Positions 3,300 to 21,015 of a stretch of 21,057 bases of DNA are shown here, piece after piece. Both the position numbers and the translations under genes were made by a program. Numbering within the stretch: the first letter of the stretch is position 1; each line of letters starts with the position of its first letter. The DNA comes from Candidatus Sigynarchaeum calidifontis (lineage in GTDB: Archaea; Asgardarchaeota; Lokiarchaeia; Sigyniarchaeales; Sigyniarchaeaceae). Under the pieces are notes generated by a model. It searched no databases and was not told the origin of the DNA. It saw only the letters and a list, made by a program, of their open reading frames with translations. The stretch spans positions 1 through 21,057 of the forward strand of contig JAUQYZ020000215.1 in assembly GCA_030587475.2 (NCBI GenBank), written 5' to 3'.

Positions 3300-3752
3300 T
3301 CAAGTCAATAGTTCCTTGCCATTCATTACCCCGGACAATTCCCGCTCGAGCACGGTCTCGTCGACGCGTTCCTTGTACTTGGTCTTCAAGGACAGCGTGT
3401 GCTTGCCCGCGCCGAGGCCGCCGGCTTGCGGGAAGTAGAGGAACATGTGGCCTCCCACGGGCAGTGAAAGACCTCCGAGATCCGTGATGTTAGACAAGGT
3501 GATCTTCTTACCAAGCACGAAGATGGCACCTTTTTTGACGTCCAACGCGTTCCCATCGACCTTAACCTCGGCATCGAATAGTTGTTTCTTGAGATCCTCG
3601 ACGTCGAAGTTTTTCTCGATCTGCATTGGCGCCATGACGTTCACGTACTTGAGCGCAAAGCCATCGATTTTCCCAGCCCCGTCCATATCGACATTCTTCA
3701 GCGCGTCCATGGGAACCATTCGCTTGATGATATACTTGGGCACGTAAGACAT
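3300..3752 (-). CDS. Hypothetical protein, predicted beta-rich domain
   Basis: Clean ORF from MSYVPKYIIKRM (ATG 3752, preceded by GGAAGTGA). The longer ORF-track start overlaps the upstream gene and is unlikely. Confidence 0.75.
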   Translation of the reverse strand: MSYVPKYIIKRMVPMDALKNVDMDGAGKIDGFALKYVNVMAPMQIEKNFDVEDLKKQLFDAEVKVDGNALDVKKGAIFVLGKKITLSNITDLGGLSLPVGGHMFLYFPQAGGLGAGKHTLSLKTKYKERVDETVLERELSGVMNGKELLT

Positions 3753-3825
3753 CCGAATCACTTCCCGTGTTGATGGTTGCCCGTTGGCCCCCGTCCATAA
3801 ATGCCTATTGATCGGCTTTCCGGCA

Positions 3826-4398
3826 TCACGGCGCCCGCTCGACGAGGAGGAGACGCAGCCGGGTGAACACGTCCGCAAGTTTCGGGCTTGCCGTGCCGGC
3901 TTCTGCCAGCGCGTCGAGGTTCGCCTCGATGCGGGCGATCACGTCCTTGTTGCTCGCTTCCCGCTCGCTAAGCCCGGACACGAGATTGAACAGCGTGGGC
4001 AATGACCCGGCCCCGTCCAGCTCGACGAGCATATCGATCGACTCGAGCCGGAAGCGGAATGACGGGATGTTGATGCCCTGGCGTAGCAAATCCATGACCC
4101 CCGGCACTTTCCCGCCGGTGAACGCATTCTGGAAGAAAAATTTGAATAAGTACTCTTGATCGCCAAGAAAGTGTTCGAATTGCTTCACCATGCCCTGCCC
4201 ACCGAGCTGTTCTTGCAAGAAGAAGTTTCGTATGCCAGGCTTGAACAATGCTTTTGTTGCCCACGCGGAACTCTTCATCTCGGCTTCCAGGTTTTTCAAG
4301 ATGTCAGCTTTCTCGGCCTGGCTCATCGAAGCAATGTTTCTCCGTATGGCCTTGAACTTTTCCGGATCTTCAAGAAAGTCAAGTTTTTCAGATTTCAC
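3826..4398 (-). CDS. Hypothetical protein, predicted helical
   Basis: 190-aa ORF with a GTG start overlapping the EamA stop (GTGA coupling) and typical amino-acid composition. No recognisable motif. Confidence 0.7.
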   Translation of the reverse strand: MKSEKLDFLEDPEKFKAIRRNIASMSQAEKADILKNLEAEMKSSAWATKALFKPGIRNFFLQEQLGGQGMVKQFEHFLGDQEYLFKFFFQNAFTGGKVPGVMDLLRQGINIPSFRFRLESIDMLVELDGAGSLPTLFNLVSGLSEREASNKDVIARIEANLDALAEAGTASPKLADVFTRLRLLLVERAP

Positions 4399-8795: not shown

Positions 8796-10031
8796 ATGGA
8801 CGGGAAAACACAGATAGCTATCACGAGAATAATTGACGACGACGTCGGCAAGGCGGTGCGCGAGGCCCTCGATCTCGTCAATGCCAAACGTTTGATGCAC
8901 GAAGGAATGCTTGTCGTGCTGAAACCCAACTTGCTCTCCGCTAAGCCGCCCGAGCGTGCCGTCACGACACACCCGGAGGTATTACGCGCCGTGATTCGCT
9001 GGGTCAAGCAATTCAAGCCCAAGCGCATCGTCGTCGCGGATAGTAGTGCCTCGACTTCGATAGGCACGACCGAAAAGGTGCTAAAAGCTAGCCTCATCGA
9101 AAAAACATGCCAGGATGAGGGTGTCGAATGTGTACCATTCGAGAAGACGGCCCGGACGGTTTACAAGGTCAAGGATCCGCTAGTACTCGACGAGTTCGCC
9201 GCGTCGACCCTCATCCAGGACGCCGACCTCATCATCAACCTGCCCAAGATCAAGACCCACGACCTCACGCGGTTGACTTGCTGCGTCAAGAACATGTTCG
9301 GCACCATGCCTCTCGGCAACAAGTCCCGTACACATGGCCGGTTCCCCATGATCAACGATTTCTGCGCGGCCCTCGCGGACGTGTATTCGGTCTCTAGACC
9401 GGCGTTGACCGTGGTCGATGGCTATCTCTGCCAGGAAGGCTCGGGGCCATCCGCTGGCGACGTTGTGAAACTCGACTTGATTCTTGCCGGCTTCGACGGC
9501 ATCGCTCTTGATACCGCGATATGCAAGATCATCGATCTTGACCCCAGCAAGGTGCCTTATCTGAAATTCGGGGAGAAGAAAGGGCTAGGCACGACTGATC
9601 TCGGCGCGGTGGAATTCAAGGGAGAGCCCCTCGATAGCGTGAAACGCCCGTTCAAGATTCCCCCCGGCAGCCCCATCGCGGGCGTGCCAATGCCCAGAAC
9701 CCTCGCGAATTATCTTGCAAACGTCGTGTTCAAGGCCCGCATCACTTTCGACCCGGCCAAGTGCAAGCTCTGCGCGACGTGCTGGAAAAACTGCCCGGTC
9801 GAGGCTATCACGCCACCGGCCGAGATTAAGCAAGGCAACGTGCCATCATGGGACAAAGCGAAGTGTATCACGTGTTACACGTGCGCTGAAACGTGCCCCC
9901 ACGAGGCAATCGGCTTTAAAATCGAACCTCTCAAGAATGCCGCGCGCTCCCCGCTCGGCATCGCCGCGATCGCCATTCTCGCCATGATCGTCGCGCTCAT
10001 CCTCTGGCTGGTAATTGCCGGGTCGTATTAA
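8796..10031 (+). CDS. DUF362 domain protein with 2x[4Fe-4S] ferredoxin domain and C-terminal TM helix
   Basis: VLKPNLL...VTTHP, INLPKIKTH...CVKNMFG, EGSGP, CKLCATCWKNCP, CITCYTCAETCP, and hydrophobic tail LGIAAIAILAMIVALILWLVIAG. Confidence 0.9.
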   Translation: MDGKTQIAITRIIDDDVGKAVREALDLVNAKRLMHEGMLVVLKPNLLSAKPPERAVTTHPEVLRAVIRWVKQFKPKRIVVADSSASTSIGTTEKVLKASLIEKTCQDEGVECVPFEKTARTVYKVKDPLVLDEFAASTLIQDADLIINLPKIKTHDLTRLTCCVKNMFGTMPLGNKSRTHGRFPMINDFCAALADVYSVSRPALTVVDGYLCQEGSGPSAGDVVKLDLILAGFDGIALDTAICKIIDLDPSKVPYLKFGEKKGLGTTDLGAVEFKGEPLDSVKRPFKIPPGSPIAGVPMPRTLANYLANVVFKARITFDPAKCKLCATCWKNCPVEAITPPAEIKQGNVPSWDKAKCITCYTCAETCPHEAIGFKIEPLKNAARSPLGIAAIAILAMIVALILWLVIAGSY

Positions 10032-12233: not shown

Positions 12234-14012
12234 ATGACCAAGATAAAACCAGAAATCGTGCACGGCGTCCCGCAAGTAACCTGGCGCATGTTCGAAAAGG
12301 ATTACGCTGACCGCCACATAATGCATCACATCGTCGAAAAATGGGCCACCGAGTGCCCCTCGAAAATCGCCATCATTTCCGCTGACACGGGCCGGGATTA
12401 CTCGTGGGCGCAGTTCAAGGAGGCCATGGACGGCATTGCATACAAGTTACTCGAGATGGGGGTGCAGAAGGGTGATTTCATCGCCAGTTCATTACCGTTT
12501 TTTCCCGAGCACGTTTTCATCATGTTCGCTTGCTTCAAGATCGGCGCCATTTTCGCACCGCTTGACATACGACTCAAGCCCTCCGAGACTGAACGCTGCA
12601 TTGACTTGATCAAAGCAAAGATGTATTTCCACCTTGGCAAGACTGATCTTGCTGATTTTGGCAAGATGTCGGAAGCGGTCATGAACAGCTGCGATTCACT
12701 CAAATATTGCGTGCAATTTTCCAATCCTGATGATATAAACGAGGACAATGATCAGACCAAGGTTATTTCAGCGCTCGAATTTGCCCTCGACGCCAAGGAT
12801 CTGCTCCGGAAAGTCAACAGCGGCGAGCGCAAGGATCTCGGCGAAAAGCTCAAGAAGGCCTCCGAGGCTATCGGCGAGCGGGATGGATGCCTTGTAATTT
12901 ACACGACCGGTTCCACGTCTGGTTACCCGAAACCCGCGTTGTTGTGCCACCAGGGCATCTGCGCCCAAGCCTTGTGCTCGGGCATCGCCTACGGCTTCGA
13001 CAATCCTGATGACGCCGTTCTCGTGAACATGCCACCAAGCCACGTAGGCGGGTTAACACAGCAATTCTTCACGACCTTGTATTTTGGCGCGAAGGCAGTC
13101 GTTCTCGACATGTTCAAGCCGGACTTGAGCCTCGAAGCAATCGCCAAGTACAACTGCGCCATCATCGGCCAGATCCCGTCTTTATTCAACATGGAATGGC
13201 GCATGCCCAACTATTACAACTACAACCTCAAGTCGCTCAAGGTGGCTATTTATGGCGGGCAAGCCATCACGCGCCCGTTTGCCGAGCAAATGGCCAAGAT
13301 GGCACCAAAGATCGCTACCGGCTTTGGCATGACCGAGATGAGCGGCATGGCAACGTTCTCCTCGCTCAATGCCAGCATCGATGACATCATATCGAGCGCC
13401 GGGTACACGATGCCCATCACGCCAATGACCATTCGAGAGCCAATGAAAGATGATTATACAGCAGGCGCTGAGAAGCCGGCAGGTCAAATCGGGGAGATCT
13501 GCTTTTCGGGCCCGCAAGTGTTCCTTGGCTACGTGAACGATCCAGAGAACACGAGGAAGACGATCAGCAAGGATGGCTGGCTTTACACGGGTGACATCGG
13601 CTCGTACGACGACAAGGGGCTGCACATCGCTGGCCGCTCCAAGTTCATGATCAAGCCAAAGGGATACAACGTCTACCCGCCCGAGATCGAGGATTTCATC
13701 GTCGAGAAATTCAAGGACCGGGTGGAGATCGCCGGCGTTGTCGGCATGCCACACGATGTGTTCGGCGAGGGCGTGTTTCTCTTCGTCGAAAAGAAGGCAG
13801 GCAAGCATATCACCCCGGAGGAAATAATGGCCGAGTGTAAAACTGGCTTGGCCGCTTACAAGCGCCCGTTGGCAGTCGTGATCATGGAACCGGCGCAGAT
13901 GCCCCTCACGCGCACGGAAAAAACTGATTACGTGCTGCTGAAAAACATCGCTGCAAAAGAGATCGAAGCCTTGCGAGCGAAAGGCAAGTGGGATCGGGGC
14001 CCGGCCGAGTGA
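12234..14012 (+). CDS. Class I adenylate-forming enzyme (AMP-forming acyl-CoA ligase)
   Basis: YTTGSTSGYPK P-loop, GFGMTE, GEIC, GWLYTGDIG, GRSKFMIKPKGYNVYPPEIE and PLTRTEK. Confidence 0.92.
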   Translation: MTKIKPEIVHGVPQVTWRMFEKDYADRHIMHHIVEKWATECPSKIAIISADTGRDYSWAQFKEAMDGIAYKLLEMGVQKGDFIASSLPFFPEHVFIMFACFKIGAIFAPLDIRLKPSETERCIDLIKAKMYFHLGKTDLADFGKMSEAVMNSCDSLKYCVQFSNPDDINEDNDQTKVISALEFALDAKDLLRKVNSGERKDLGEKLKKASEAIGERDGCLVIYTTGSTSGYPKPALLCHQGICAQALCSGIAYGFDNPDDAVLVNMPPSHVGGLTQQFFTTLYFGAKAVVLDMFKPDLSLEAIAKYNCAIIGQIPSLFNMEWRMPNYYNYNLKSLKVAIYGGQAITRPFAEQMAKMAPKIATGFGMTEMSGMATFSSLNASIDDIISSAGYTMPITPMTIREPMKDDYTAGAEKPAGQIGEICFSGPQVFLGYVNDPENTRKTISKDGWLYTGDIGSYDDKGLHIAGRSKFMIKPKGYNVYPPEIEDFIVEKFKDRVEIAGVVGMPHDVFGEGVFLFVEKKAGKHITPEEIMAECKTGLAAYKRPLAVVIMEPAQMPLTRTEKTDYVLLKNIAAKEIEALRAKGKWDRGPAE

Positions 14013-14016
14013 TCCC

Positions 14017-14057
14017 TTCTATTTGATTTTTCTCCGCGGGAGAGATGGCGCTTTTTT
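14017..14057 (+). terminator. Putative terminator after the acyl-CoA ligase
   Basis: T-rich tract TTCTATTTGATTTTT, a short hairpin TCTCC-GCG-GGAGA, then a T6 run. Confidence 0.4.
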
Positions 14058-14065
14058 CCCTTGCC

Positions 14066-14097
14066 GAAAGCGTATTATTGCTGGATCGCTCCGATCC
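14066..14097 (+). promoter_or_regulatory. Putative BRE/TATA promoter of the GRE operon plus adjacent inverted repeat
   Basis: GAAAGCG-TATTATTG (14066-14080) starts 43 nt upstream of ATG 14109, followed by GGATCG-CTC-CGATCC (14083-14097). Confidence 0.45.
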
Positions 14098-14108
14098 GAT
14101 CGAAGATC

Positions 14109-16607
14109 ATGGCATCGAGCAAGACGTGCAGCATCCCCGGGCAGTATACGTTCGACCTGGCGAGGCCACACGGCCTGTCCACGCGGGCGCAGTGGCTCCG
14201 CGACTACTATTTCAAGGGCAATAACCGCGCGTGGAACAACCAGTTTTCCCCCTTCACGACCGGCACGCCTTGGGATCGCGTGTGGAACGAGGGCGATTAT
14301 TACATCGTGCCGGAAATGTACGCGTACATGGGAGAGAACGACAAGGGCCCATTCCCCAAATCATTCGAGCTCATGGCCGAGCCGGTTCCGTTGCCTGATG
14401 GATTCTGGCAGCTTTCGATCCCCGAGCGACGCGCGTGGTTCTTCCGGGAGGTCATGGTGAACCGCATCCCCCAAGAGATCATTTCGGACAACGACTTGAT
14501 CGCGGGTGGCAGGTTCAACACGCAGCTCTCCAAGTGCCTAGACAAGAAAGAACAAGCAGCCTTCGAGAAGGAAAACATGAAAAACCGGAAGGCAATACTG
14601 CGGTTTCATTTCGATGGTTTCGGAAACGCGGGAGCCACCGGTGGACATCTCATCCCGGACTACAAGCTCGTCGTGGAAAAGGGTTTCAAGCACTTGCACG
14701 AAAAGGCAAAACGCGCGTACGATGCCTTGCCTGAAGCAGAAAAGCGGGGCCCAAAGGGTGCCGAGCTGCGGGCCATGATCGTTTCGGCAGAGGTGCCACG
14801 GGATCTCGCCGGGAAATATGCTGCCGAGTGCCGCCGGCTATCAAGCGAATTGAAATCCGGGCAACGCAAAGCGGAGCTCGAGCAGATGGCTGCAAATCTC
14901 GATAGGGTACCGTGGGAGCCCGCACGCACGTTTTGGGAGGGGGTGCAAGCCGTCTGGCTTGCCCACATGCTCGTGATCGCGGAGGAGAGCTATCCCGGGC
15001 CAGGCACGAGCTTTGGCCGCCTCGACCAGTACCTGTGGCCCTTGTACGAGCAAGACGTCATCATCAACAAGACCATCACGCGTGAATTCGCCAAGGACAT
15101 CTTTTCCGCGTTCATGTTCCACTGCAACACGGCTTACGATGCTCAAATCACGATCGGCAACCAGGGCATCACGTCGGGATTCGGCCAGCTCGTCACGCTC
15201 GCAGGCATCGGCCCCGATGGCGAGGACGCGACGAATGACCTCACGTATCTCATCCTGGAGGTATTCGACGAGTGGGCACCCATCCTGGAGCCAAAACCCA
15301 ACGTGCGCCTCCACAAGAAGAGCCCGGAGAAGCTCCTAGACGTGCTCGTGACAATGATATCCCGCGCCCAGGGTGCCCCGTTCATCATCAACTTCGATGA
15401 GCGGAGCATGGCCGGTTTAGTGACCGAAGGAGTTCCGGCCAGCGATGTTTGGAACTATGCGTGTGTCGGCTGTCTCGAGAACACGATGCAAGGCAACGAC
15501 CGTTCCGGCACGGTCAATTGCAACCCGAACCTGGCGCGGAGCATCGAGCTGACCTTGTGGCGCGGCAAGAGCATCCCTGGCTTTCGCCATCACAAGCGGA
15601 CGAAAGCGCAGCTCGGGCCCGACACGGGCGACCCGGCCACGTTCACGTCCTGGGAGGAATTTTTCTCGGCTTTCCTCAAGCAGCTGAAGCATATCATCAA
15701 GCGCACGGTCGATGTCTATAACATGACAGAGGCATTCCGCTCGCGCTGGATGCCAACGCCTTACGTGAGCATCCTCGTCGACGGCATGATCGAGAGCGGG
15801 AGAGACATCCGGGAGGCGCCACCGCGGTACGGGTTCGTCACGATCGAGGGCGTGGGCTTCGCTACCACGGTCGACTCGCTGCTTGCAATCAAGAAATTCG
15901 TGTATGATGAGAAGAAATACACGATCGATCAGGTCAAGGCCGCGCTCCAGGCAAATTATCAAGGTCATAAAGAATACGCCATCATGCAAGCGCTGTTCAA
16001 GAACAAGGCGCCGAAATATGGCAACGACGACAAGGACGCCGATGCCATCGCCATGACGGTCATGCGGGCGTGGGCCGAGGAAACAATGAAGTATAAAACG
16101 CCCACGGGTTATAAATTCCGCCCAGGCATGCTGAGTTGGAACTATTGGGCAGGCAACGACGCCGCGCTCACGCCCGCGACGCCAGATGGGCGCACAGCGG
16201 GCTCGTTCTTGTCGAATGCCATCTGCCCGACGAACGGCGCGGACGTGGCTGGGCCGACGGCCGTCGCAAACTCTGTCGGTGCCGCGCTCGGCGGCAAGGA
16301 TGGTGCCGGGAACCATGTCAATGTCCTTCCCAACGGTGCCTCGCACACGATCACCTTCAACCCGGCCATCTTGCGCGACCCCGAACACAAGGAAAAATTC
16401 AAGTCGTACTTGAGGGGGTATATCGAGAACGGGGGCAGCGCGCTGCAGATCAACATGCTCGACTCGGCCATGCTCAAGGACGCGCAGCTCCACCCGCAGA
16501 ACTACGGCAACTTGCTAGTGCGCGTCACCGGTTACAACGCGTATTTTACCGCGATAGGAAAAGAGCTCCAGGACGAGATCATCGCCCGGGAATCTCACGT
16601 GTTCTGA
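14109..16607 (+). CDS. Glycyl radical enzyme (PFL/glycerol dehydratase superfamily), substrate unknown
   Basis: GHLIPDY, PARTFWEGVQAVW, SFGRLDQYL, Cys loop YACVGCLE (15462-15479), PKYGND, ATPDGR, and Gly loop LLVRVTGYN (Gly codon 16530-16532). Confidence 0.95.
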   Translation: MASSKTCSIPGQYTFDLARPHGLSTRAQWLRDYYFKGNNRAWNNQFSPFTTGTPWDRVWNEGDYYIVPEMYAYMGENDKGPFPKSFELMAEPVPLPDGFWQLSIPERRAWFFREVMVNRIPQEIISDNDLIAGGRFNTQLSKCLDKKEQAAFEKENMKNRKAILRFHFDGFGNAGATGGHLIPDYKLVVEKGFKHLHEKAKRAYDALPEAEKRGPKGAELRAMIVSAEVPRDLAGKYAAECRRLSSELKSGQRKAELEQMAANLDRVPWEPARTFWEGVQAVWLAHMLVIAEESYPGPGTSFGRLDQYLWPLYEQDVIINKTITREFAKDIFSAFMFHCNTAYDAQITIGNQGITSGFGQLVTLAGIGPDGEDATNDLTYLILEVFDEWAPILEPKPNVRLHKKSPEKLLDVLVTMISRAQGAPFIINFDERSMAGLVTEGVPASDVWNYACVGCLENTMQGNDRSGTVNCNPNLARSIELTLWRGKSIPGFRHHKRTKAQLGPDTGDPATFTSWEEFFSAFLKQLKHIIKRTVDVYNMTEAFRSRWMPTPYVSILVDGMIESGRDIREAPPRYGFVTIEGVGFATTVDSLLAIKKFVYDEKKYTIDQVKAALQANYQGHKEYAIMQALFKNKAPKYGNDDKDADAIAMTVMRAWAEETMKYKTPTGYKFRPGMLSWNYWAGNDAALTPATPDGRTAGSFLSNAICPTNGADVAGPTAVANSVGAALGGKDGAGNHVNVLPNGASHTITFNPAILRDPEHKEKFKSYLRGYIENGGSALQINMLDSAMLKDAQLHPQNYGNLLVRVTGYNAYFTAIGKELQDEIIARESHVF

Positions 16608-16637
16608 AAACACGTCCACCAACCAGGCAAGATAGAC

Positions 16638-17615
16638 ATGAAGGATGGAACCGTCACCGCGACGGGTGCGACGGCAAACATTTTCGAGATACAGAGATAC
16701 AGCACGGAAGATGGCCCCGGCATCCGGACGACCGTGTTCTTCAAGCAGTGCCCGCTCCGCTGCGCTTGGTGCCAGAACCCCGAGGGGCTCCATCGCGAGC
16801 CCAGCATCCAATGGTTCAAGGTGAAATGCATTGGCTGCGAGAGTTGCGTGAAGGCATGCACCAAGAAAGCGATAATGAGGGCTGTCGATGGCATTCACAT
16901 CGACCGGCGCGCGTGCACGTCATGCGGCGCTTGCGTGGAGGCTTGCCCGTCCACGGCACTGAAATCCTTCGGGAGGATCATGCCGATCGAGACCCTGGTT
17001 GACGAGGTCGCCAAGGACGTTGCCTTTTATGACCAGTCCGGAGGCGGCGTCACGGCATCGGGCGGGGACCCGGCCGTGCAAGCGGACGCGGTCGCGCTGT
17101 TCCTCTCGACGTGCAAGGCGAGGGGCATACGCACGGCCATCGAGACGACCGGGGCCACGACGGTGGCCGTGCTCGAGCTGCTTCTCCCCCATGTCGACTT
17201 GTTCATGTACGACTTGAAGGAGATCGACCCGGAAAAGCATAAAAGATTCACTGGCATATCGAACGACAAGATTCTCGAAAATTGCAAGTGGTTGGCGAGC
17301 CGCGTCGACGGGAAGGAGAAACAGCTATGGATTCGCACGCCGATCATCCCCGGATACACGGCCACGGACGAGAACGTGAGTGGCATTGCCAAATTTATCG
17401 CAAAGGAGCTGGGAGGAAAGGTGCAGCGATGGGATCTCTTGTCGTTTAACAATCTACCAGCAGACAAGTACGAGCGCATGGACCTGGGAAAGTGGGTGCT
17501 GAAAGCCGTGCCGCTGCTGACAAGGCGCGAGATGGAGCATTATCTCGATCTCGCCAGGGCAAGCGGCGTGCCGGTCGTGGCCTGGTCCGGCCTCACGAGA
17601 CGGGATGATGGATGA
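16638..17615 (+). CDS. Glycyl-radical enzyme activating protein (radical SAM) with inserted 2x[4Fe-4S] ferredoxin domain
   Basis: IQRYSTEDGPGIRTTVFFK, CPLRCAWCQNPE, CIGCESCVKAC, CTSCGACVEAC, GGVTASGGDP and YDLK. Confidence 0.96.
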   Translation: MKDGTVTATGATANIFEIQRYSTEDGPGIRTTVFFKQCPLRCAWCQNPEGLHREPSIQWFKVKCIGCESCVKACTKKAIMRAVDGIHIDRRACTSCGACVEACPSTALKSFGRIMPIETLVDEVAKDVAFYDQSGGGVTASGGDPAVQADAVALFLSTCKARGIRTAIETTGATTVAVLELLLPHVDLFMYDLKEIDPEKHKRFTGISNDKILENCKWLASRVDGKEKQLWIRTPIIPGYTATDENVSGIAKFIAKELGGKVQRWDLLSFNNLPADKYERMDLGKWVLKAVPLLTRREMEHYLDLARASGVPVVAWSGLTRRDDG

Positions 17616-18513
17616 TTCGGAGGAGATAGACACGGCAAAGCACGAGGAAAAGCCAACGTGGCTAAAGGAAATACCGGCCGAAGCGGTCGATTTTACTTGG
17701 ACGGAGGTCATGGCCAAGCTGCTCGGGACGATCGACCCCGGTGGGTTCCCGCATATCACGTTAATCGCATGTAACCGGGCGATCTCGCCAACGACGGTCA
17801 AGTGGGGGCAATTCATCCAGGGTCGCAGCAAGAAGCACATCTACGACAACCCGAAGTCGGCATCGCTGTACATGACCAAGACCATGCCCCTCACGTTTTT
17901 GCAAGTGAAGATGGACTTCGACCGGTGCTCGCTTGATGGAGCAGACGCGGAGAACTTCAACACGGCGCAGCTGCTGCGGTACAACACCTACGTCCGTGTC
18001 GATCACGTGTATTTCAACACGGTTCGCGCCGCGTCGCCGCTCCGGCCGCTCCCCCTGGGAGGCATCATCAAGGGCATGGTTGCCGACGCGATCGGCATCG
18101 GCGGGTTGAAAACGGGCAAAACAGAGGCGCGTATCCCGCCATTCGGCATGGCACTGTTCCGCGCGCCCGTGGGGCCGAAGTTCCTCGCGTTCATCGATCC
18201 TGCCGATGGATATCCAGTCATCGTCCCATGTTTTCAGGCCAGGGCGGTCGAGGGAAAAGCGATCGCGTTTTCGTTCACCCAATTCGCCGGCGATCTCGCC
18301 CCGCTACAACCGGGGGCAAAAATGGCCTTTTTCGCCTTGAGTTTCGAACTCACGAGCATCCTCGTGAAAGGCATATACACGGGCATCAAGAAATCCCGTG
18401 GAATACGTTTTGGCATGGTGGACGTGACGGAAGTATATAACCCGATGCCGCCGCTGGCCGGCATGCTCTACCCAGTGAAAGCATCACGGCCGAAGGTCAC
18501 TGCATTTCAATGA
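17605..18513 (+). CDS. Tandem pyridoxamine 5'-phosphate oxidase-like (split beta-barrel, FMN/F420-binding fold) protein
   Basis: Two similar units: KLLGTIDPGGFPHITLI...GRSKKHIYDNPK and KFLAFIDPADGYPVIVP. The start overlaps the activase stop by 11 nt (or 8 nt if the second ATG is used). Confidence 0.75.
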   Translation: MMDDSEEIDTAKHEEKPTWLKEIPAEAVDFTWTEVMAKLLGTIDPGGFPHITLIACNRAISPTTVKWGQFIQGRSKKHIYDNPKSASLYMTKTMPLTFLQVKMDFDRCSLDGADAENFNTAQLLRYNTYVRVDHVYFNTVRAASPLRPLPLGGIIKGMVADAIGIGGLKTGKTEARIPPFGMALFRAPVGPKFLAFIDPADGYPVIVPCFQARAVEGKAIAFSFTQFAGDLAPLQPGAKMAFFALSFELTSILVKGIYTGIKKSRGIRFGMVDVTEVYNPMPPLAGMLYPVKASRPKVTAFQ

Positions 18514-18520
18514 AACCCGA

Positions 18521-19498
18521 CTATTGCATGATCGTTGTAAGGGAGTTTTCCTTGAACGGTTTGAAGATGGCAGGTAGCTTCTCGTCGATGACGAGCGTGG
18601 ATATCGTGTCCTGAATCTTGCCAGTCCTATACATGGCTTCCAAGAATTGGCGATAGTCTGAAATGCTGCTTGTCCGAACCACGGCAAAAAGGCCGTATTC
18701 TTCTCCGGTTCGATATAGATCGACGATCTCGTCCTTCGGAGCGAGAGTCTCGGCGGCTATGATATCATACTCGGAAAGGTTCTTGGGAAGGATCTGGAGA
18801 TAAAATTTTAAAGGAAAATCGGTCTGTTGAATGTAATCCGGGGAGATCTTGATCGTTGGAATGCAGTACATCTCGTTCCGCAACTTGCGGACCATTCTTG
18901 ATGCCTGGTTATACGAGAGCGGAAACCCTTTCATCGAGGCTTTTTCCATGATACTCAAGATCGGAAATGGTTCCTCCATGTCTTGCATTATATCAAGCAA
19001 ACACGCCTCGATTTTGTTGATCATGAGATCTTGGCGTTCTTGGGGGAAGGTAAAGCCGCCGTCCTTGAAAGTTCTCAAGCAATTGATTATCTTGTAGTGT
19101 TGGAAGCGGGTATGGGTGATGAGAAGATCGAGTTGCTTCAGAATACTTGAAAGTTCTTGATCGTCACGCGTGCAACACTTGAAGACGAGTGAATTTTGGC
19201 CAATGATGCCGTCTATGGAACGCACGTGATGGATTTCTTGCAATTTCAATACGATTTCAGGCTCTTCTGGATTGGTTTTTATTTCGATAAAAAACGTGCG
19301 AGCCCCGCGAATGTTTGGATTTTCAACGATGGTATAGAAGATTTTCTTTTCGTCTTCAAGACGTGAAATGAATTGGCCAACGCTCTGTCGGGACACGGGA
19401 AAATTCCGTCTCCTGAGTTCATCGGAGAGCATGGGGAGCGATTGGTTCGCATCCTCGTGCAATAAATTGAGCAGTTGCTTGCTAGTTGGTTTGGGCAA
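18521..19498 (-). CDS. Lrp/AsnC family transcriptional regulator, tandem (HTH-RAM)x2
   Basis: LLNLLHEDANQS...SRQSVGQFISRLEDEK (HTH1), IDGIIGQNSLVFK (RAM1), LSYNQASRMVRKL (HTH2), LYRTGEEYGLFAVVR...DTISTLV (RAM2). TTG 19498 is preceded by SD-like AAGGTGG; the ORF track extends to 19591. Confidence 0.82.
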   Translation of the reverse strand: MPKPTSKQLLNLLHEDANQSLPMLSDELRRRNFPVSRQSVGQFISRLEDEKKIFYTIVENPNIRGARTFFIEIKTNPEEPEIVLKLQEIHHVRSIDGIIGQNSLVFKCCTRDDQELSSILKQLDLLITHTRFQHYKIINCLRTFKDGGFTFPQERQDLMINKIEACLLDIMQDMEEPFPILSIMEKASMKGFPLSYNQASRMVRKLRNEMYCIPTIKISPDYIQQTDFPLKFYLQILPKNLSEYDIIAAETLAPKDEIVDLYRTGEEYGLFAVVRTSSISDYRQFLEAMYRTGKIQDTISTLVIDEKLPAIFKPFKENSLTTIMQ

Positions 19499-19632: not shown

Positions 19633-19728
19633 TTTAGAGAAAACGATTCAACGACATTATTGCAATTCAGTTGTGTGATTGTTAAGCAGACAAGCTTAGT
19701 AAAAAAATACCAACAATTGTGAAGCAGT

Positions 19729-21015
19729 ATGGCTACACCACCGAATGCAAAAGAAGGCGTTTACAAGGTCGCTGACATGTCCCTTGTCGAGAAAGGCAAG
19801 GAAGCGATCTACGTTGCCGCTCGGAAGATGCCCGTGACATCCAAGATCTTGCGAGATCGGTTCGCGAAGGAGAAACCGCTGCAGGGGATCAAGATCGCGG
19901 GCTGCTTGCACGTCACGAAGGAGACCGCGAACCTCGCTCTCACGCTCAAGGCTGGCGGTGCCGAGGTGCTGCTGTGCGGGAGTAACCCGCTGTCCACGCA
20001 AGACGACACCGCCGCCGCGCTGGTCGATGCCGGCGTGAAGGTGTTCGCTTGGCACGGCAACACGTCCGAGGAATTCTACTGGTGCATCCGCGAATGTCTC
20101 AAGCAAAAACCCAACATCCTCATCGATGACGGGGCAGACCTTATCGTGACAGCTCACAAGGAATTCCCCGATCTCATCAAGTCGGGAACGATCATGGCTT
20201 GCCAGGAGGAAACCACGACCGGCGTGAAGCGGTTCAAGGCCATGGAACAAGCCAAGGAGCTCAAGGTGCCGCTCTTCCCCGTGAATGATGCCCGGTGCAA
20301 GAACGAGTTCGACAACGAGCTCGGCACGGGTCAGGGGGTTATCTCCGCCATCCAGGGCATGCACATCCTCATGGCGGGCAAGGTCGTCGTGGTCGCGGGG
20401 TATGGCCACTGCGGATCCGGCATGGCGTTGCGCGCCCGCGGGCTCGGTGCCCAGGTGCTCGTCACCGAGGTCGACCCGATCCAGGCCCTCAAGGCCGTGT
20501 TCGCAGGGTTCCGGGTCTTGCCCATGGACGAGGCTTGCAAGGAGGCCGACGTCATCTTCACGGTCACCGGCTGCAAGGACGTGGTCACTTCCAAGCATTT
20601 CGACCAGCTCAAGGATGGTTGTATCCTCGGAAATCTCGGTCATTTCGACGTGGAGATCGCGACGGCCAAGCTCTACGCTGAAGCGAAGGATCGGAAACCC
20701 ATCCGCAAGGACGTGGAAGAGATCACGCTCAAGAATGGAAAAAAGGTCTACTTGCTTGCCCAGGGCCGCCTCGCTAATCTCGTGCTCACGGAGGGGCACC
20801 CCAGCGAAGTAATGGACATGAGCTTCGGTCTCCAGAGCCTCGTCTCGGAATACATCTCCAAGAACTACAAGACCTTCAAGCCCGGTATAATCGACGTTCC
20901 CAAGGAGATCGACGACAAGGTCGGATTGCTCAAGCTCGAAGCAATGGGCATCAAGATTGACAAGCTCACCGAGGCACAATACAAGTATATCCACGGTTAC
21001 GAAGAGGGAACATGA
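19729..21015 (+). CDS. ahcY: Adenosylhomocysteinase (SAH hydrolase), archaeal type
   Basis: GCLHVTKET, NPLSTQD, DDGAD, EETTTG, KNEFDN, GYGHCGSG, GHFDVEI, GHPSEVMDMSF and a short C-terminus ending EGT. Confidence 0.97.
   Translation: MATPPNAKEGVYKVADMSLVEKGKEAIYVAARKMPVTSKILRDRFAKEKPLQGIKIAGCLHVTKETANLALTLKAGGAEVLLCGSNPLSTQDDTAAALVDAGVKVFAWHGNTSEEFYWCIRECLKQKPNILIDDGADLIVTAHKEFPDLIKSGTIMACQEETTTGVKRFKAMEQAKELKVPLFPVNDARCKNEFDNELGTGQGVISAIQGMHILMAGKVVVVAGYGHCGSGMALRARGLGAQVLVTEVDPIQALKAVFAGFRVLPMDEACKEADVIFTVTGCKDVVTSKHFDQLKDGCILGNLGHFDVEIATAKLYAEAKDRKPIRKDVEEITLKNGKKVYLLAQGRLANLVLTEGHPSEVMDMSFGLQSLVSEYISKNYKTFKPGIIDVPKEIDDKVGLLKLEAMGIKIDKLTEAQYKYIHGYEEGT

Follow-up and report, generated by a model that had tools for sequence, protein, structure and literature searches.

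Three consecutive genes of an Asgard archaeon encode an oxygen-sensitive glycyl radical enzyme (GRE), an activase and a third protein, ORF3, and they raise the question of whether ORF3 is a partner of the GRE and, if so, of what kind. The genes lie at positions 14109-18513 of the forward strand of the window, that is, of the whole 21,057-nt stretch of Candidatus Sigynarchaeum calidifontis DNA that was analysed, in the order GRE > activase > ORF3. The ORF layout and the junction sequences agree with the preliminary description of this row. The GRE stop codon (16605-16607) is followed by a 30-nt gap and the activase ATG at 16638, the activase stop codon (17613-17615) overlaps the ORF3 ATG at 17605 by 11 nt, and the ORF3 stop codon (18511-18513) is followed 7 nt further on by the end, at 18521, of a convergent gene for a 356-aa protein with an AsnC-type ligand domain. 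An acyl-CoA ligase gene lies directly upstream of the GRE gene. The region between the two (14013..14108, +) was read directly from the sequence, and by eye it contains oligo-T tracts at 14017-14061, 3' of the ligase gene, and a TATA-like GTATTATT about 30 nt 5' of ATG 14109. It is probably the unit's own archaeal promoter, which remains unverified; a sigma-70 promoter and terminator scan, not applicable to an archaeon, found nothing at the GRE start.

The GRE (832 aa; 14109..16607, +) was recognised from Pfam, NCBIfam and its orthologues, and its PFL-like and Gly_radical domains were matched with E values of 7e-122 (PF02901) and 1e-20 (PF01228). The reading frame is also open from a TTG at 14061; since the alignments with homologues begin near residue 15 of that form, ATG 14109 is the likely start. 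The marks of the glycyl radical enzyme superfamily that were checked are present, namely both domains, the Gly-loop fingerprint, a catalytic cysteine (C455) and a cognate radical SAM activase. The NCBIfam models gave 375 bits for HpsG and for HypD, 348 for HpfG, 337 for CutC, 287 for IAD, 205 for HPAD and 83 for PFL, against curated cut-offs of 994 to 1150 bits, and the PFL2/glycerol-dehydratase subfamily TIGR01774 gave 413 bits, below its cut-off of 678. Because every one of these scores is sub-cut-off and even the best solved relatives score no higher than about 300 bits, the GRE is, as far as sequence comparison can tell, an uncharacterised enzyme of a distinct clade outside every characterised GRE family. 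It had been called uncharacterised from the outset, and the high-identity clustering with a known family that would have told against the proposed new module was not observed. The N-terminal region (residues 1-184; 14109..14660, +) is specific to the clade and is not matched by the Pfam PFL-like profile, the alignment to which begins only at profile position 140. Used as a lone query with a threshold of E <= 1e-10, this region had matches in 189 of 400 Asgard genomes. Its only match in the genome of the window was the window's GRE, and the four further GRE genes there were not matched. Of these four, at least three have their own activase gene or domain, and no ORF3 homologue was found beside any of them.

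The residues around the active site indicate the kind of chemistry. The Cys loop V453-G-C455-L-E457 (15465..15479, +) belongs to a motif, VGCLENTMxGNDRS, that is invariant across 20 orthologues, and it contains the Cys-x-Glu that marks GRE eliminases and isomerases (PMC13450708). The Gly loop R805-V-T-G808-Y (16521..16535, +), identified by Pfam and by alignment, holds the glycyl radical site. Its sequence, RVTGYNAYFTAIGKELQDEIIAR, fits the GRE fingerprint RVxG[FWY]x6-8[FL]x4Qx2[IV]x2R (PMC13450708) except for Ile816 at the Phe/Leu position, and this isoleucine is invariant within the clade. A common PFL-like fold, a single catalytic cysteine in Cys-x-Glu and an RVxG Gly loop are thereby shared with glycerol dehydratase (GD), HypD, CutC, IslA/HpsG, YbiW/PflD and HplG. 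The eliminases and isomerases are also the best-scoring solved relatives (about 260-318 bits), and their activases likewise carry a ferredoxin-like insert. In a phmmer alignment to GD (1r8w), read by eye, the equivalents of GD H164 (H180 in the GRE) and E435 are kept, the roles of the Cys-x-Glu motif and of His164 being as described in PMC13450708. The GD substrate residues H281, S282 and D447 are changed to P, G and V, respectively, and identity as a B12-independent glycerol/diol dehydratase was rejected on these three replacements. The GRE departs from the eliminases and isomerases in falling below every curated family cut-off, in having a clade-specific stretch of about 180 residues at its start, and in its proposed dedicated flavin-fold partner, a kind of protein which they lack. 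The one archaeal PFL-like GRE that has been structurally characterised, Archaeoglobus fulgidus PflD (PDB 2f3o), is of debated function and belongs to a different clade; solved GREs in its range scored 248-263 bits against the window's GRE.

The activase (325 aa; 16638..17615, +) is a GRE-activating radical SAM enzyme with a ferredoxin-like two-cluster insert, as indicated by its Radical_SAM and Fer4 domains and by TIGR02494 (310 bits, cut-off 174); 19 orthologues were aligned. ORF3 (302 aa; 17605..18513, +) had no Pfam match even at E 10, so the label "PNPOx-like" in the preliminary description could not have come from a profile match to this protein. At the sequence level this label has only weak support, and only from relatives: PF01243 matched 12 of 25 of them at E <= 1, always in the N-terminal half, and two exceeded the cut-off of 28.1 with scores of 29.6 and 29.5. 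At the level of fold it holds for both halves. The N-terminal barrel (residues ~19-150; 17659..18054, +) gave VIA Z scores of 13.3 to 11 with HupZ (13.3; rmsd 3.0-3.3 Å over 118-119 aligned residues), 2htd (13.1), 3in6, F420 reductases and the D. vulgaris FMN-binding protein. The C-terminal barrel (residues ~175-280; 18127..18444, +), folded alone with a pLDDT of 82, matched the same split-barrel set (TM 0.55-0.71). Taken over both halves, the folds of PF01243 and its relatives (the D. vulgaris FMN-binding protein, HupZ, mycobacterial F420-dependent reductases and PhdC) match with Z up to 13.3 and TM 0.55-0.74, and biliverdin reductase Rv2074, flavin reductases and PNPOx-like enzymes are also close. 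In addition, hhalign aligned the two halves with each other in register (E 0.003). Both halves are thus modelled as FMN-binding split barrels. PNPOx-like proteins are built as homodimers, each barrel being about 120-150 aa long; in ORF3, two diverged barrels would be fused in one chain, to which a conserved tail is added, and ORF3 is tied to a GRE.

Three further features of ORF3 bear on its role. The N-terminal barrel contains the motif W67-G-x-F-x-x-G-x-S75-K76, followed by N-P; S75-K76...N-P is invariant among the homologues and resembles what we take to be the cofactor-phosphate motif of the PNPOx family, and the Ser-Lys motif is absent from the C-terminal barrel. A cofactor (FMN, FAD or F420) could therefore be bound, an inference from this motif reading alone without any binding data, and a flavin-free scaffold is also possible. 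F420 should be available in the organism, since its genome encodes CofH and CofD, both above cut-offs. The C-terminal tail (residues 279-302; 18439..18510, +) keeps N279, P282, P283, P290, K297 and F301 invariant and is disordered in the monomer model (pLDDT < 50). Finally, there is no invariant or near-invariant cysteine among 25 homologues; because conserved Cys ligands are lacking and the fold is a split barrel, ORF3 is not a GRE subunit of the HiPIP-like or rubredoxin-like kind. The family is small, with 342 representatives among 1.84 billion. DUF447 was considered as a relative of ORF3 and was rejected (hhalign probability 0.2%).

The adjacency of the three genes is not a matter of chance, because the arrangement is repeated in many genomes, both of several Asgard groups and of bacteria. 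About 55 of the 80 Asgard loci that were fetched have the order GRE > activase > ORF3. Among bacteria, the trio is present at four Chloroflexota loci and in one further lineage, with an ORF3 of just 32% identity, and it is also found in the cultured Lokiarchaeum ossiferum and in a Promethearchaeum MAG. Orthologues of the GRE are 61-70% identical in the Asgard loci and 51-56% identical in the bacterial loci. At 11 loci the gene right after the GRE is ORF3, and the activase is elsewhere or was not found nearby. In about 10 others the activase and ORF3 genes stand together with the GRE elsewhere, and an orthologous GRE (65-67% identity) was present at a separate site in 4 of the 5 such genomes checked. 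These roughly 10 loci would be explained equally well if the activase were the partner of ORF3, and they count against a bound GRE subunit. Genome by genome, the GRE clade marker and ORF3 were both present in 159 of 400 Asgard genomes, only one or the other in 13 and 30, and neither in 198; many of the 43 single-marker genomes are incomplete MAGs, and related genomes are not independent samples. The share of the 400 sampled genomes that have the system is roughly 40-47%, with many incomplete MAGs in the sample. In an Asgard clade that is more distant, about 3 kb also separate the GRE marker from an ORF3-like gene on the same contig. Both the locus comparison and the co-occurrence thus bear out the expectation that a split-barrel gene is conserved beside homologues of this GRE, the absence of which would have told against the proposed module.

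Whether the two proteins could bind each other was addressed by complex prediction, using residues 1-700 of the GRE, as a monomer truncated before the glycyl-radical domain, and residues 19-302 of ORF3. The ipSAE values were 0.82, 0.79 and 0.81 (median 0.81), while the best of three controls reached 0.00; the runs shared at least 81% of contacts, and the partner pLDDT was at least 85. Of 80 solved complexes, 58 reach the pass mark, as do 2 of 110 mismatched pairs; these counts apply only roughly here because our own alignments were supplied. The predicted interface joins GRE residues 7-9, 33-48, 72-91 and 121-126, within the clade-specific N-terminal region, to the conserved tail of ORF3 and neighbouring loops, and the lowest expected errors among interface pairs (0.8-1.3 Å) place the tail on that region. 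A memorised pass is unlikely, because no GRE with a split-barrel partner was found in a recent review of the field (PMC13450708) or in the literature searched. The N-terminal helices of GREs normally make the homodimer interface (PMC13450708), so in the real dimer part of the surface predicted to receive ORF3 could already be taken up. Binding of ORF3 to the GRE is therefore a prediction only. Three roles had been suggested for ORF3, namely oxidation or reduction of the GRE product, electron supply to the activase, and a non-catalytic subunit; the prediction favours a bound subunit, and it does not decide whether this subunit is catalytic or redox-active.

Known systems offer a partial precedent. 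Benzylsuccinate synthase (alpha-beta-gamma), 1-methylalkylsuccinate synthase (alpha-beta-gamma-delta) and 4-hydroxyphenylacetate decarboxylase (alpha-gamma) likewise combine a GRE with an operon-encoded, clade-specific surface protein, the binding of which is here only predicted. Their subunits are small iron proteins, whereas ORF3 is a tandem split barrel without conserved cysteines, and the GRE of the window is of the Cys-x-Glu type rather than a fumarate-adding enzyme or a decarboxylase. According to a review of June 2026 (PMC13450708), the known small GRE subunits are only HiPIP-like [4Fe-4S] or rubredoxin-like iron proteins. We also found no paper in the literature that joins a glycyl radical enzyme with a split barrel, and the earlier assertion that no known GRE has such a partner stands as far as it was checked.

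Taken together, we consider it the best explanation, with a probability of about 0.6, that the trio is one conserved enzyme system composed of a GRE eliminase or isomerase, its dedicated activase and ORF3 as a bound accessory subunit. Gene order, conservation, co-occurrence, folds and motifs are direct grounds for this reading, the binding is predicted, and the cofactor, the reaction class and the role of the subunit are inferred. In the proposed mechanism, the activase would install the radical on Gly808, and Cys455 would take a hydrogen atom from the substrate. Glu457 and the histidine aligned with GD His164 would handle the substrate hydroxyl and the leaving group; on the assumption of these roles, the reaction would be a radical 1,2-elimination or isomerisation next to an alcohol, and pyruvate cleavage, decarboxylation and fumarate addition would be excluded. 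ORF3, as a single-chain pseudo-dimer of two PNPOx-like barrels, would dock through its conserved tail and nearby loops on the N-terminal region of the GRE, with one flavin-type cofactor (FMN, FAD or F420) held most likely in its N-terminal barrel near the interface. There it might carry out a reduction or oxidation of the product, serve as an electron relay, or have a stabilising or gating function of the kind that the beta and gamma subunits of BSS are thought to have. A bolder version, which we advance only tentatively as a possibility, is that ORF3 is a catalytic flavin/F420 subunit that couples the radical cleavage of a C-O or C-X bond to a redox step where the two subunits meet. The GRE reaction would then be net reductive or oxidative, or a reactive product would be reduced on the enzyme.

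Other explanations of the trio were also weighed. ORF3 might be a free-standing flavin- or F420-dependent reductase or oxidase that acts on the GRE product or on a substrate precursor, co-transcribed with the GRE and forming no stable complex with it. F420-dependent reductases, Rv2074, flavin reductases and PNPOx-like enzymes are among its nearest folds, F420 is available through CofH and CofD, and conserved neighbours of GREs in known systems are mostly pathway enzymes. However, the complex prediction is strong and specific (0.81 versus 0.00), and its contacts fall on the two marker features of the system, the clade-specific N-terminus of the GRE and the invariant tail of ORF3, so that a free-standing enzyme seems unlikely. 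It is less likely still that ORF3 is a dedicated flavoprotein electron donor to the [4Fe-4S] cluster of the activase, a surrogate for flavodoxin. Such a role would suit the overlap of the ORF3 start with the activase stop, the activase-ORF3 pair that stays intact in about 10 loci from which the GRE has moved, and the presence among the nearest folds of the D. vulgaris FMN-binding protein, which we take to be a small redox protein. Yet the GRE paralogues of the same genome have activases without an ORF3, which means that the need for such a donor would be clade-specific; in 11 loci ORF3 comes straight after the GRE, and the activase is at another site or was not found close by; and the predicted partner surface is on the GRE, although only the GRE-ORF3 pair was modelled.

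The two remaining alternatives have little to recommend them. GREs of Hermodarchaeota and Thorarchaeota have been proposed as alkyl- or benzylsuccinate synthases (Ass/Bss) at 29-33% identity (PMC8163825), and if these belonged to the same clade, which is unconfirmed, the GRE might be such an enzyme in which ORF3 replaces the beta and gamma subunits. An acyl-CoA ligase gene directly upstream in the window, as well as SCP2, SRPBCC, MMPL and FadR-type neighbours suggestive of hydrophobic substrates, would be in keeping with this. Against it, the solved alpha chains of such synthases (MasD, 9o8u; TutD/BSS, 4pkc) score 172-208 bits, compared with about 300 for eliminases, the activase reaches 192 bits with the BssD model TIGR04003, well below the cut-off of 496, and ORF3 lacks conserved cysteines that could bind an Fe-S cluster. 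The invariant Cys-x-Glu and the GD His164 equivalent are, moreover, eliminase/isomerase features (PMC13450708), and we regard a succinate synthase as highly improbable. Least credible of all is that the adjacency is merely inherited synteny and that ORF3 belongs to a downstream block, DUF447>DHNA<GHMP<, which follows it in about 31 loci and looks like tetrahydromethanopterin biosynthesis (DUF447, DHNA-aldolase, GHMP-kinase). DUF447 is itself an FMN-binding barrel family. Nevertheless, the block is missing in the window, in L. ossiferum and in all bacterial loci, where the trio is still present, and ORF3 tracks the GRE clade across rearrangements and domains.

The neighbouring genes give a hint of the substrate. 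Genes that recur beside the trio encode an arylsulfatase-like protein, a FabK/NMO-like FMN enzyme, an SCP2 protein, an SRPBCC protein, an MMPL transporter and FadR-type regulators. Together with the acyl-CoA ligase of the window, these linked genes hint at a desulfated, possibly hydrophobic alcohol or acid as the substrate. The linkage to the sulfatase and the NMO is missing in the window, in Lokiarchaeum ossiferum and in the bacterial loci, and the best match to the linked sulfatase in the window's own genome, one among many sulfatases there, is 40% identical. The ORF survey of the loci had a minimum of 90 aa, so genes for HiPIP-like subunits of 60-80 aa were outside its reach. The literature searched on archaeal sulfatases and Lokiarchaea contained nothing on the trio system beyond the Ass/Bss proposal, and that interpretation of Asgard GREs is weakened if the GREs of PMC8163825 belong to the present clade.

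Only three GREs are known to have accessory subunits, in each case small iron proteins whose role is unclear. On our best reading, with its role inferred, ORF3 is a flavin-fold accessory subunit, a kind of partner not described before for GREs, and the contact of its tail with the N-terminus of the GRE, together with a flavin, is a concrete and testable proposal. No archaeal PFL-like GRE has an assigned function (2026 review, PMC13450708), and the trio is a frequent, as yet unassigned piece of anaerobic metabolism in the closest archaeal relatives of eukaryotes. If ORF3 is a catalytic subunit, the trio would represent a new catalytic architecture for the GRE superfamily and would provide the first functionally approachable archaeal PFL-like GRE, one that is widespread in Asgard archaea, including cultured strains.

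The open reading frame listing and the junction sequences confirmed the three-gene layout of the preliminary description, including the start/stop overlap and the convergent end. The glycyl radical enzyme (GRE) gene runs from an ATG at 14109 to 16607 (+) and encodes 832 aa; its frame is also open from a TTG at 14061, and the ATG is the likely start, since alignments with homologues begin near residue 15 of that form. The activase gene (+, ATG 16638 to 17615) begins 30 nt past the GRE end, and ORF3 (+, ATG 17605 to 18513) overlaps the activase stop by 11 nt; the convergent gene beyond it, which encodes 356 aa with an AsnC-type ligand domain, ends at 18521. Family searches placed a PIG-L-family deacetylase and an AMP-dependent acyl-CoA ligase (the ligase at 12234-14012) upstream of the GRE on the same strand, and the junction sequence showed T-rich tracts between these genes and the GRE. 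The assembly is a MAG of 4.99 Mb with 89% completeness. On the same strand as the GRE unit and three genes further upstream (8796-10031, +) is the gene of a DUF362 protein that carries a 2x[4Fe-4S] ferredoxin domain at its C-terminus. A 192-aa ORF (3300-3878, -) scored 27.5 bits for the C-glycoside deglycosidase beta subunit, borderline against the cut-off of 27.6. A 432-aa ORF without a family match (19696-20994, -) is antisense to the adenosylhomocysteinase gene (19729-21015, +; TIGR00936, 541 bits) and is most likely a shadow ORF of a GC-rich stretch.

The activase is of the standard GRE type and carries a ferredoxin-like insert (TIGR02494, 310 bits, cut-off 174). The GRE possesses the PFL-like and Gly_radical domains of Pfam and fell below every curated NCBIfam cut-off (413 against 678 for TIGR01774), so the suggestion that it lies outside the characterised families was upheld. 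Its scores were 375 for HpsG and for HypD, 348 for HpfG, 337 for CutC, 287 for IAD, 205 for HPAD and 83 for PFL, with curated cut-offs of 994-1150 for these models. Among solved relatives, phmmer scored the eliminases best (CutC 318 bits, glycerol dehydratase (GD) 302, HypD 298), together with the 'glycyl radical protein' 9rco (299); the X-succinate synthase alpha chains MasD and TutD/BSS reached 172-208 bits and PFL 56. The Cys loop VGCLENTMxGNDRS and the Gly loop RVTGYNAYF were invariant in 20 of 20 orthologues. A Cys-x-Glu motif is kept by 1,2-eliminases and isomerases, its Glu binding the substrate hydroxyl, and His164 of GD protonates the leaving hydroxyl (PMC13450708). In the phmmer alignment, H180 of our GRE matched GD His164, whereas GD H281, S282 and D447 were replaced. 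This combination suggests, from sequence alone, that the most likely reaction is cleavage of a C-O or C-X bond adjacent to an alcohol, in a substrate different from the known ones. Hermodarchaeota and Thorarchaeota GREs have been called Ass/Bss on the basis of 29-33% identity and a single Cys (PMC8163825, 2021). For the present clade, the NCBIfam scores, the solved-relative scores and the invariant loops speak against that identity; whether the published GREs belong to this clade is not established.

ORF3 had no Pfam match, even at E 10. A homologue search returned only 26 relatives (214-298 aa), all archaeal where named, the closest annotated as Sigynarchaeota and Lokiarchaeia, i.e. Promethearchaeota. 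The family is small, since among 1.84 billion representatives only 342 members came up in a profile search. The AlphaFold2 model (pLDDT 82, pTM 0.81) consists of two beta-barrels and a disordered tail. Structure searches, including Foldseek, matched the N half, with Z up to 13.3, to split-barrel proteins that bind flavin, F420 or haem, and the C half folded alone (pLDDT 82) matched the same set (TM 0.55-0.71). Because both halves match split barrels and align with each other in register, albeit weakly (hhalign E 0.003), the label of a tandem PNPOx-like split barrel is right for both at the level of the fold. PF01243 was touched by 12 of 25 relatives at E <= 1, always in the N half, and two relatives just exceeded its gathering score. 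The alignment of homologues revealed an invariant W-G-x-F-x-x-G-x-S-K ... N-P stretch in the N half, which we take to be the phosphate-binding motif of the split-barrel family; the C half lacks it. No Cys is conserved in this alignment, so ORF3 is not an Fe-S subunit. It possibly binds FMN, FAD or F420, although cofactor binding has not been shown; F420 is as possible as the flavins because CofH and CofD, both above cut-offs, are encoded in the genome.

A scan with one genome per species found 118 ORF3 relatives, of which 80 loci were kept and their arrangements derived from tblastn and ORF clustering. Almost all are Asgard, among them the cultured Lokiarchaeum ossiferum (L003) and, as a MAG, a Promethearchaeum (L045); the Anaerolineae/Chloroflexia account for four. 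The full trio also occurs in one locus labelled Bathyarchaeia (L002, DATKZI010000026.1), all other archaeal loci being Asgard, which could reflect gene transfer or a binning or labelling error. The order GRE, activase, ORF3 occurred in about 55 of the 80 loci, and the split-barrel gene is thus kept beside GRE homologues, in bacteria as well. A further bacterial lineage (cluster of protein P0055, 144 members) has a tightly packed series of MMPL, GntR/FCD regulator, GRE, activase and ORF3-like genes, with identities of 53% (GRE), 43% (activase) and 32% (ORF3-like).

Of 400 genomes of the phylum, 172 were matched by the ORF3 profile and 189 by the GRE N-terminal marker; both were present in 159, only one in 13 and 30, respectively, and neither in 198. 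Related genomes do not count as independent samples, and many of the MAGs are incomplete; family by family, however, the two markers show the same pattern. A more distant Asgard clade has the GRE marker (about 40% identical) and an ORF3 profile match (E ~1e-18) on one contig, with about 3 kb between them. The window's genome encodes four other GREs, at least three with their own activase gene or domain, and no ORF3 relative was found for any of the four. Together with the co-occurrence, this ties ORF3 to this GRE clade and not to GREs generally. In the same genome, a radical-SAM activase domain (residues 25-189) and a complete PFL-like GRE, Gly_radical domain included, are joined in a single 1098-aa ORF (contig G000:C265; L094:346-3642, minus strand), and contig G000:C205 carries another frame, of about 1129 aa, that looks the same.

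The trio was linked to an arylsulfatase-like gene in 36 loci and to one for a FabK/NMO-like FMN enzyme in 22, in at least four arrangements (before the GRE, after ORF3, or with activase and ORF3 only), which speaks for selection to keep them linked. In about 10 Asgard loci (L015, L021, L025-L028, L032, L043 and others; e.g. L015:7016-11357), an activase-ORF3 pair without a GRE is followed by both genes and an H+-pyrophosphatase; in other loci, the sulfatase and NMO genes stand together ahead of the GRE. Looser recurring neighbours were SCP2, an SRPBCC protein, MFS and MMPL transporters and, in bacteria, FadR-type regulators, beside the acyl-CoA ligase of the window. We can only guess that the substrate is a desulfated, perhaps hydrophobic, alcohol or hydroxy acid, as the neighbours do not fix it. 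In about 31 loci (L005, L007, L035-L072; e.g. L048:8904-9605 and the genes after it), the trio is flanked by a block of DUF447, archaeal dihydroneopterin aldolase, GHMP-kinase-family, AIR-synthase-like, PP-loop and pterin-binding genes that looks like tetrahydromethanopterin biosynthesis, its DUF447, aldolase and GHMP-kinase part coming after ORF3. The other loci lack the block, and it has no relation to ORF3, so we consider it probably inherited synteny. In 12 loci (L035-L064; e.g. L037:1837-2349), the GRE, or the sulfatase-GRE pair, is immediately preceded on its strand by a rubrerythrin gene, which may protect the oxygen-sensitive enzyme from peroxide.

The ORF3 tail (279-302) has six invariant positions, yet is disordered in the monomer, and the first ~180 GRE residues are clade-specific, since the match to the Pfam profile starts only at profile position 140. 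Because of these two features, GRE-ORF3 binding was tested by complex prediction with GRE 1-700 (without the glycyl-radical domain, as a monomer and not a homodimer) and ORF3 19-302. The ipSAE values were 0.82, 0.79 and 0.81, against 0.00 for the best of three controls; the runs shared at least 81% of contacts, with partner pLDDT >= 85. Of 80 solved complexes, 58 attained that mark, as did 2 of 110 mismatched pairs; these rates apply only roughly here, because the alignments were our own. The predicted interface comprises GRE 7-9, 33-48, 72-91, 121-126 and 345-349 and ORF3 70-73, 107-110, 134, 178-180, 248-251 and 279-302; in the model it joins the clade-specific GRE N-terminus to the ORF3 tail, with ORF3 70-73 next to the putative cofactor motif. 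In GREs, the homodimer interface is usually built from N-terminal helices (PMC13450708). Binding is supported by this model, which is a prediction and no measurement.

We therefore favour ORF3 as a bound GRE subunit, with a probability of roughly 0.6, the substrate of the GRE and the cofactor and role of ORF3 being inferred. It might alternatively be a free pathway enzyme, its fold being shared with flavin- and F420-binding proteins; set beside the predicted interface, we regard this as unlikely. Less plausible still is an electron donor for the activase. Activase and ORF3 stand without an adjacent GRE in about 10 of the 80 loci, which would fit such a donor; an orthologous GRE (65-67% identity) lies on another contig in four of the five such genomes checked. 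Against a donor, ORF3 directly follows the GRE in 11 loci.

Gene conservation and complex prediction support the proposed radical module, in the form of a GRE with a bound subunit. Its claim to be without precedent stands as far as the literature could be checked, as neither a June 2026 review (PMC13450708) nor literature searches yielded a GRE with a split-barrel partner. That review gives accessory subunits for HPAD, BSS and MASS only and describes all characterised PFL-like GREs as bacterial. Those subunits are all HiPIP-like or rubredoxin-like, whereas the partner found here is a flavin-fold split barrel; we read the system as a GRE whose dedicated flavin-fold subunit, probably bound to it, is of a novel type.
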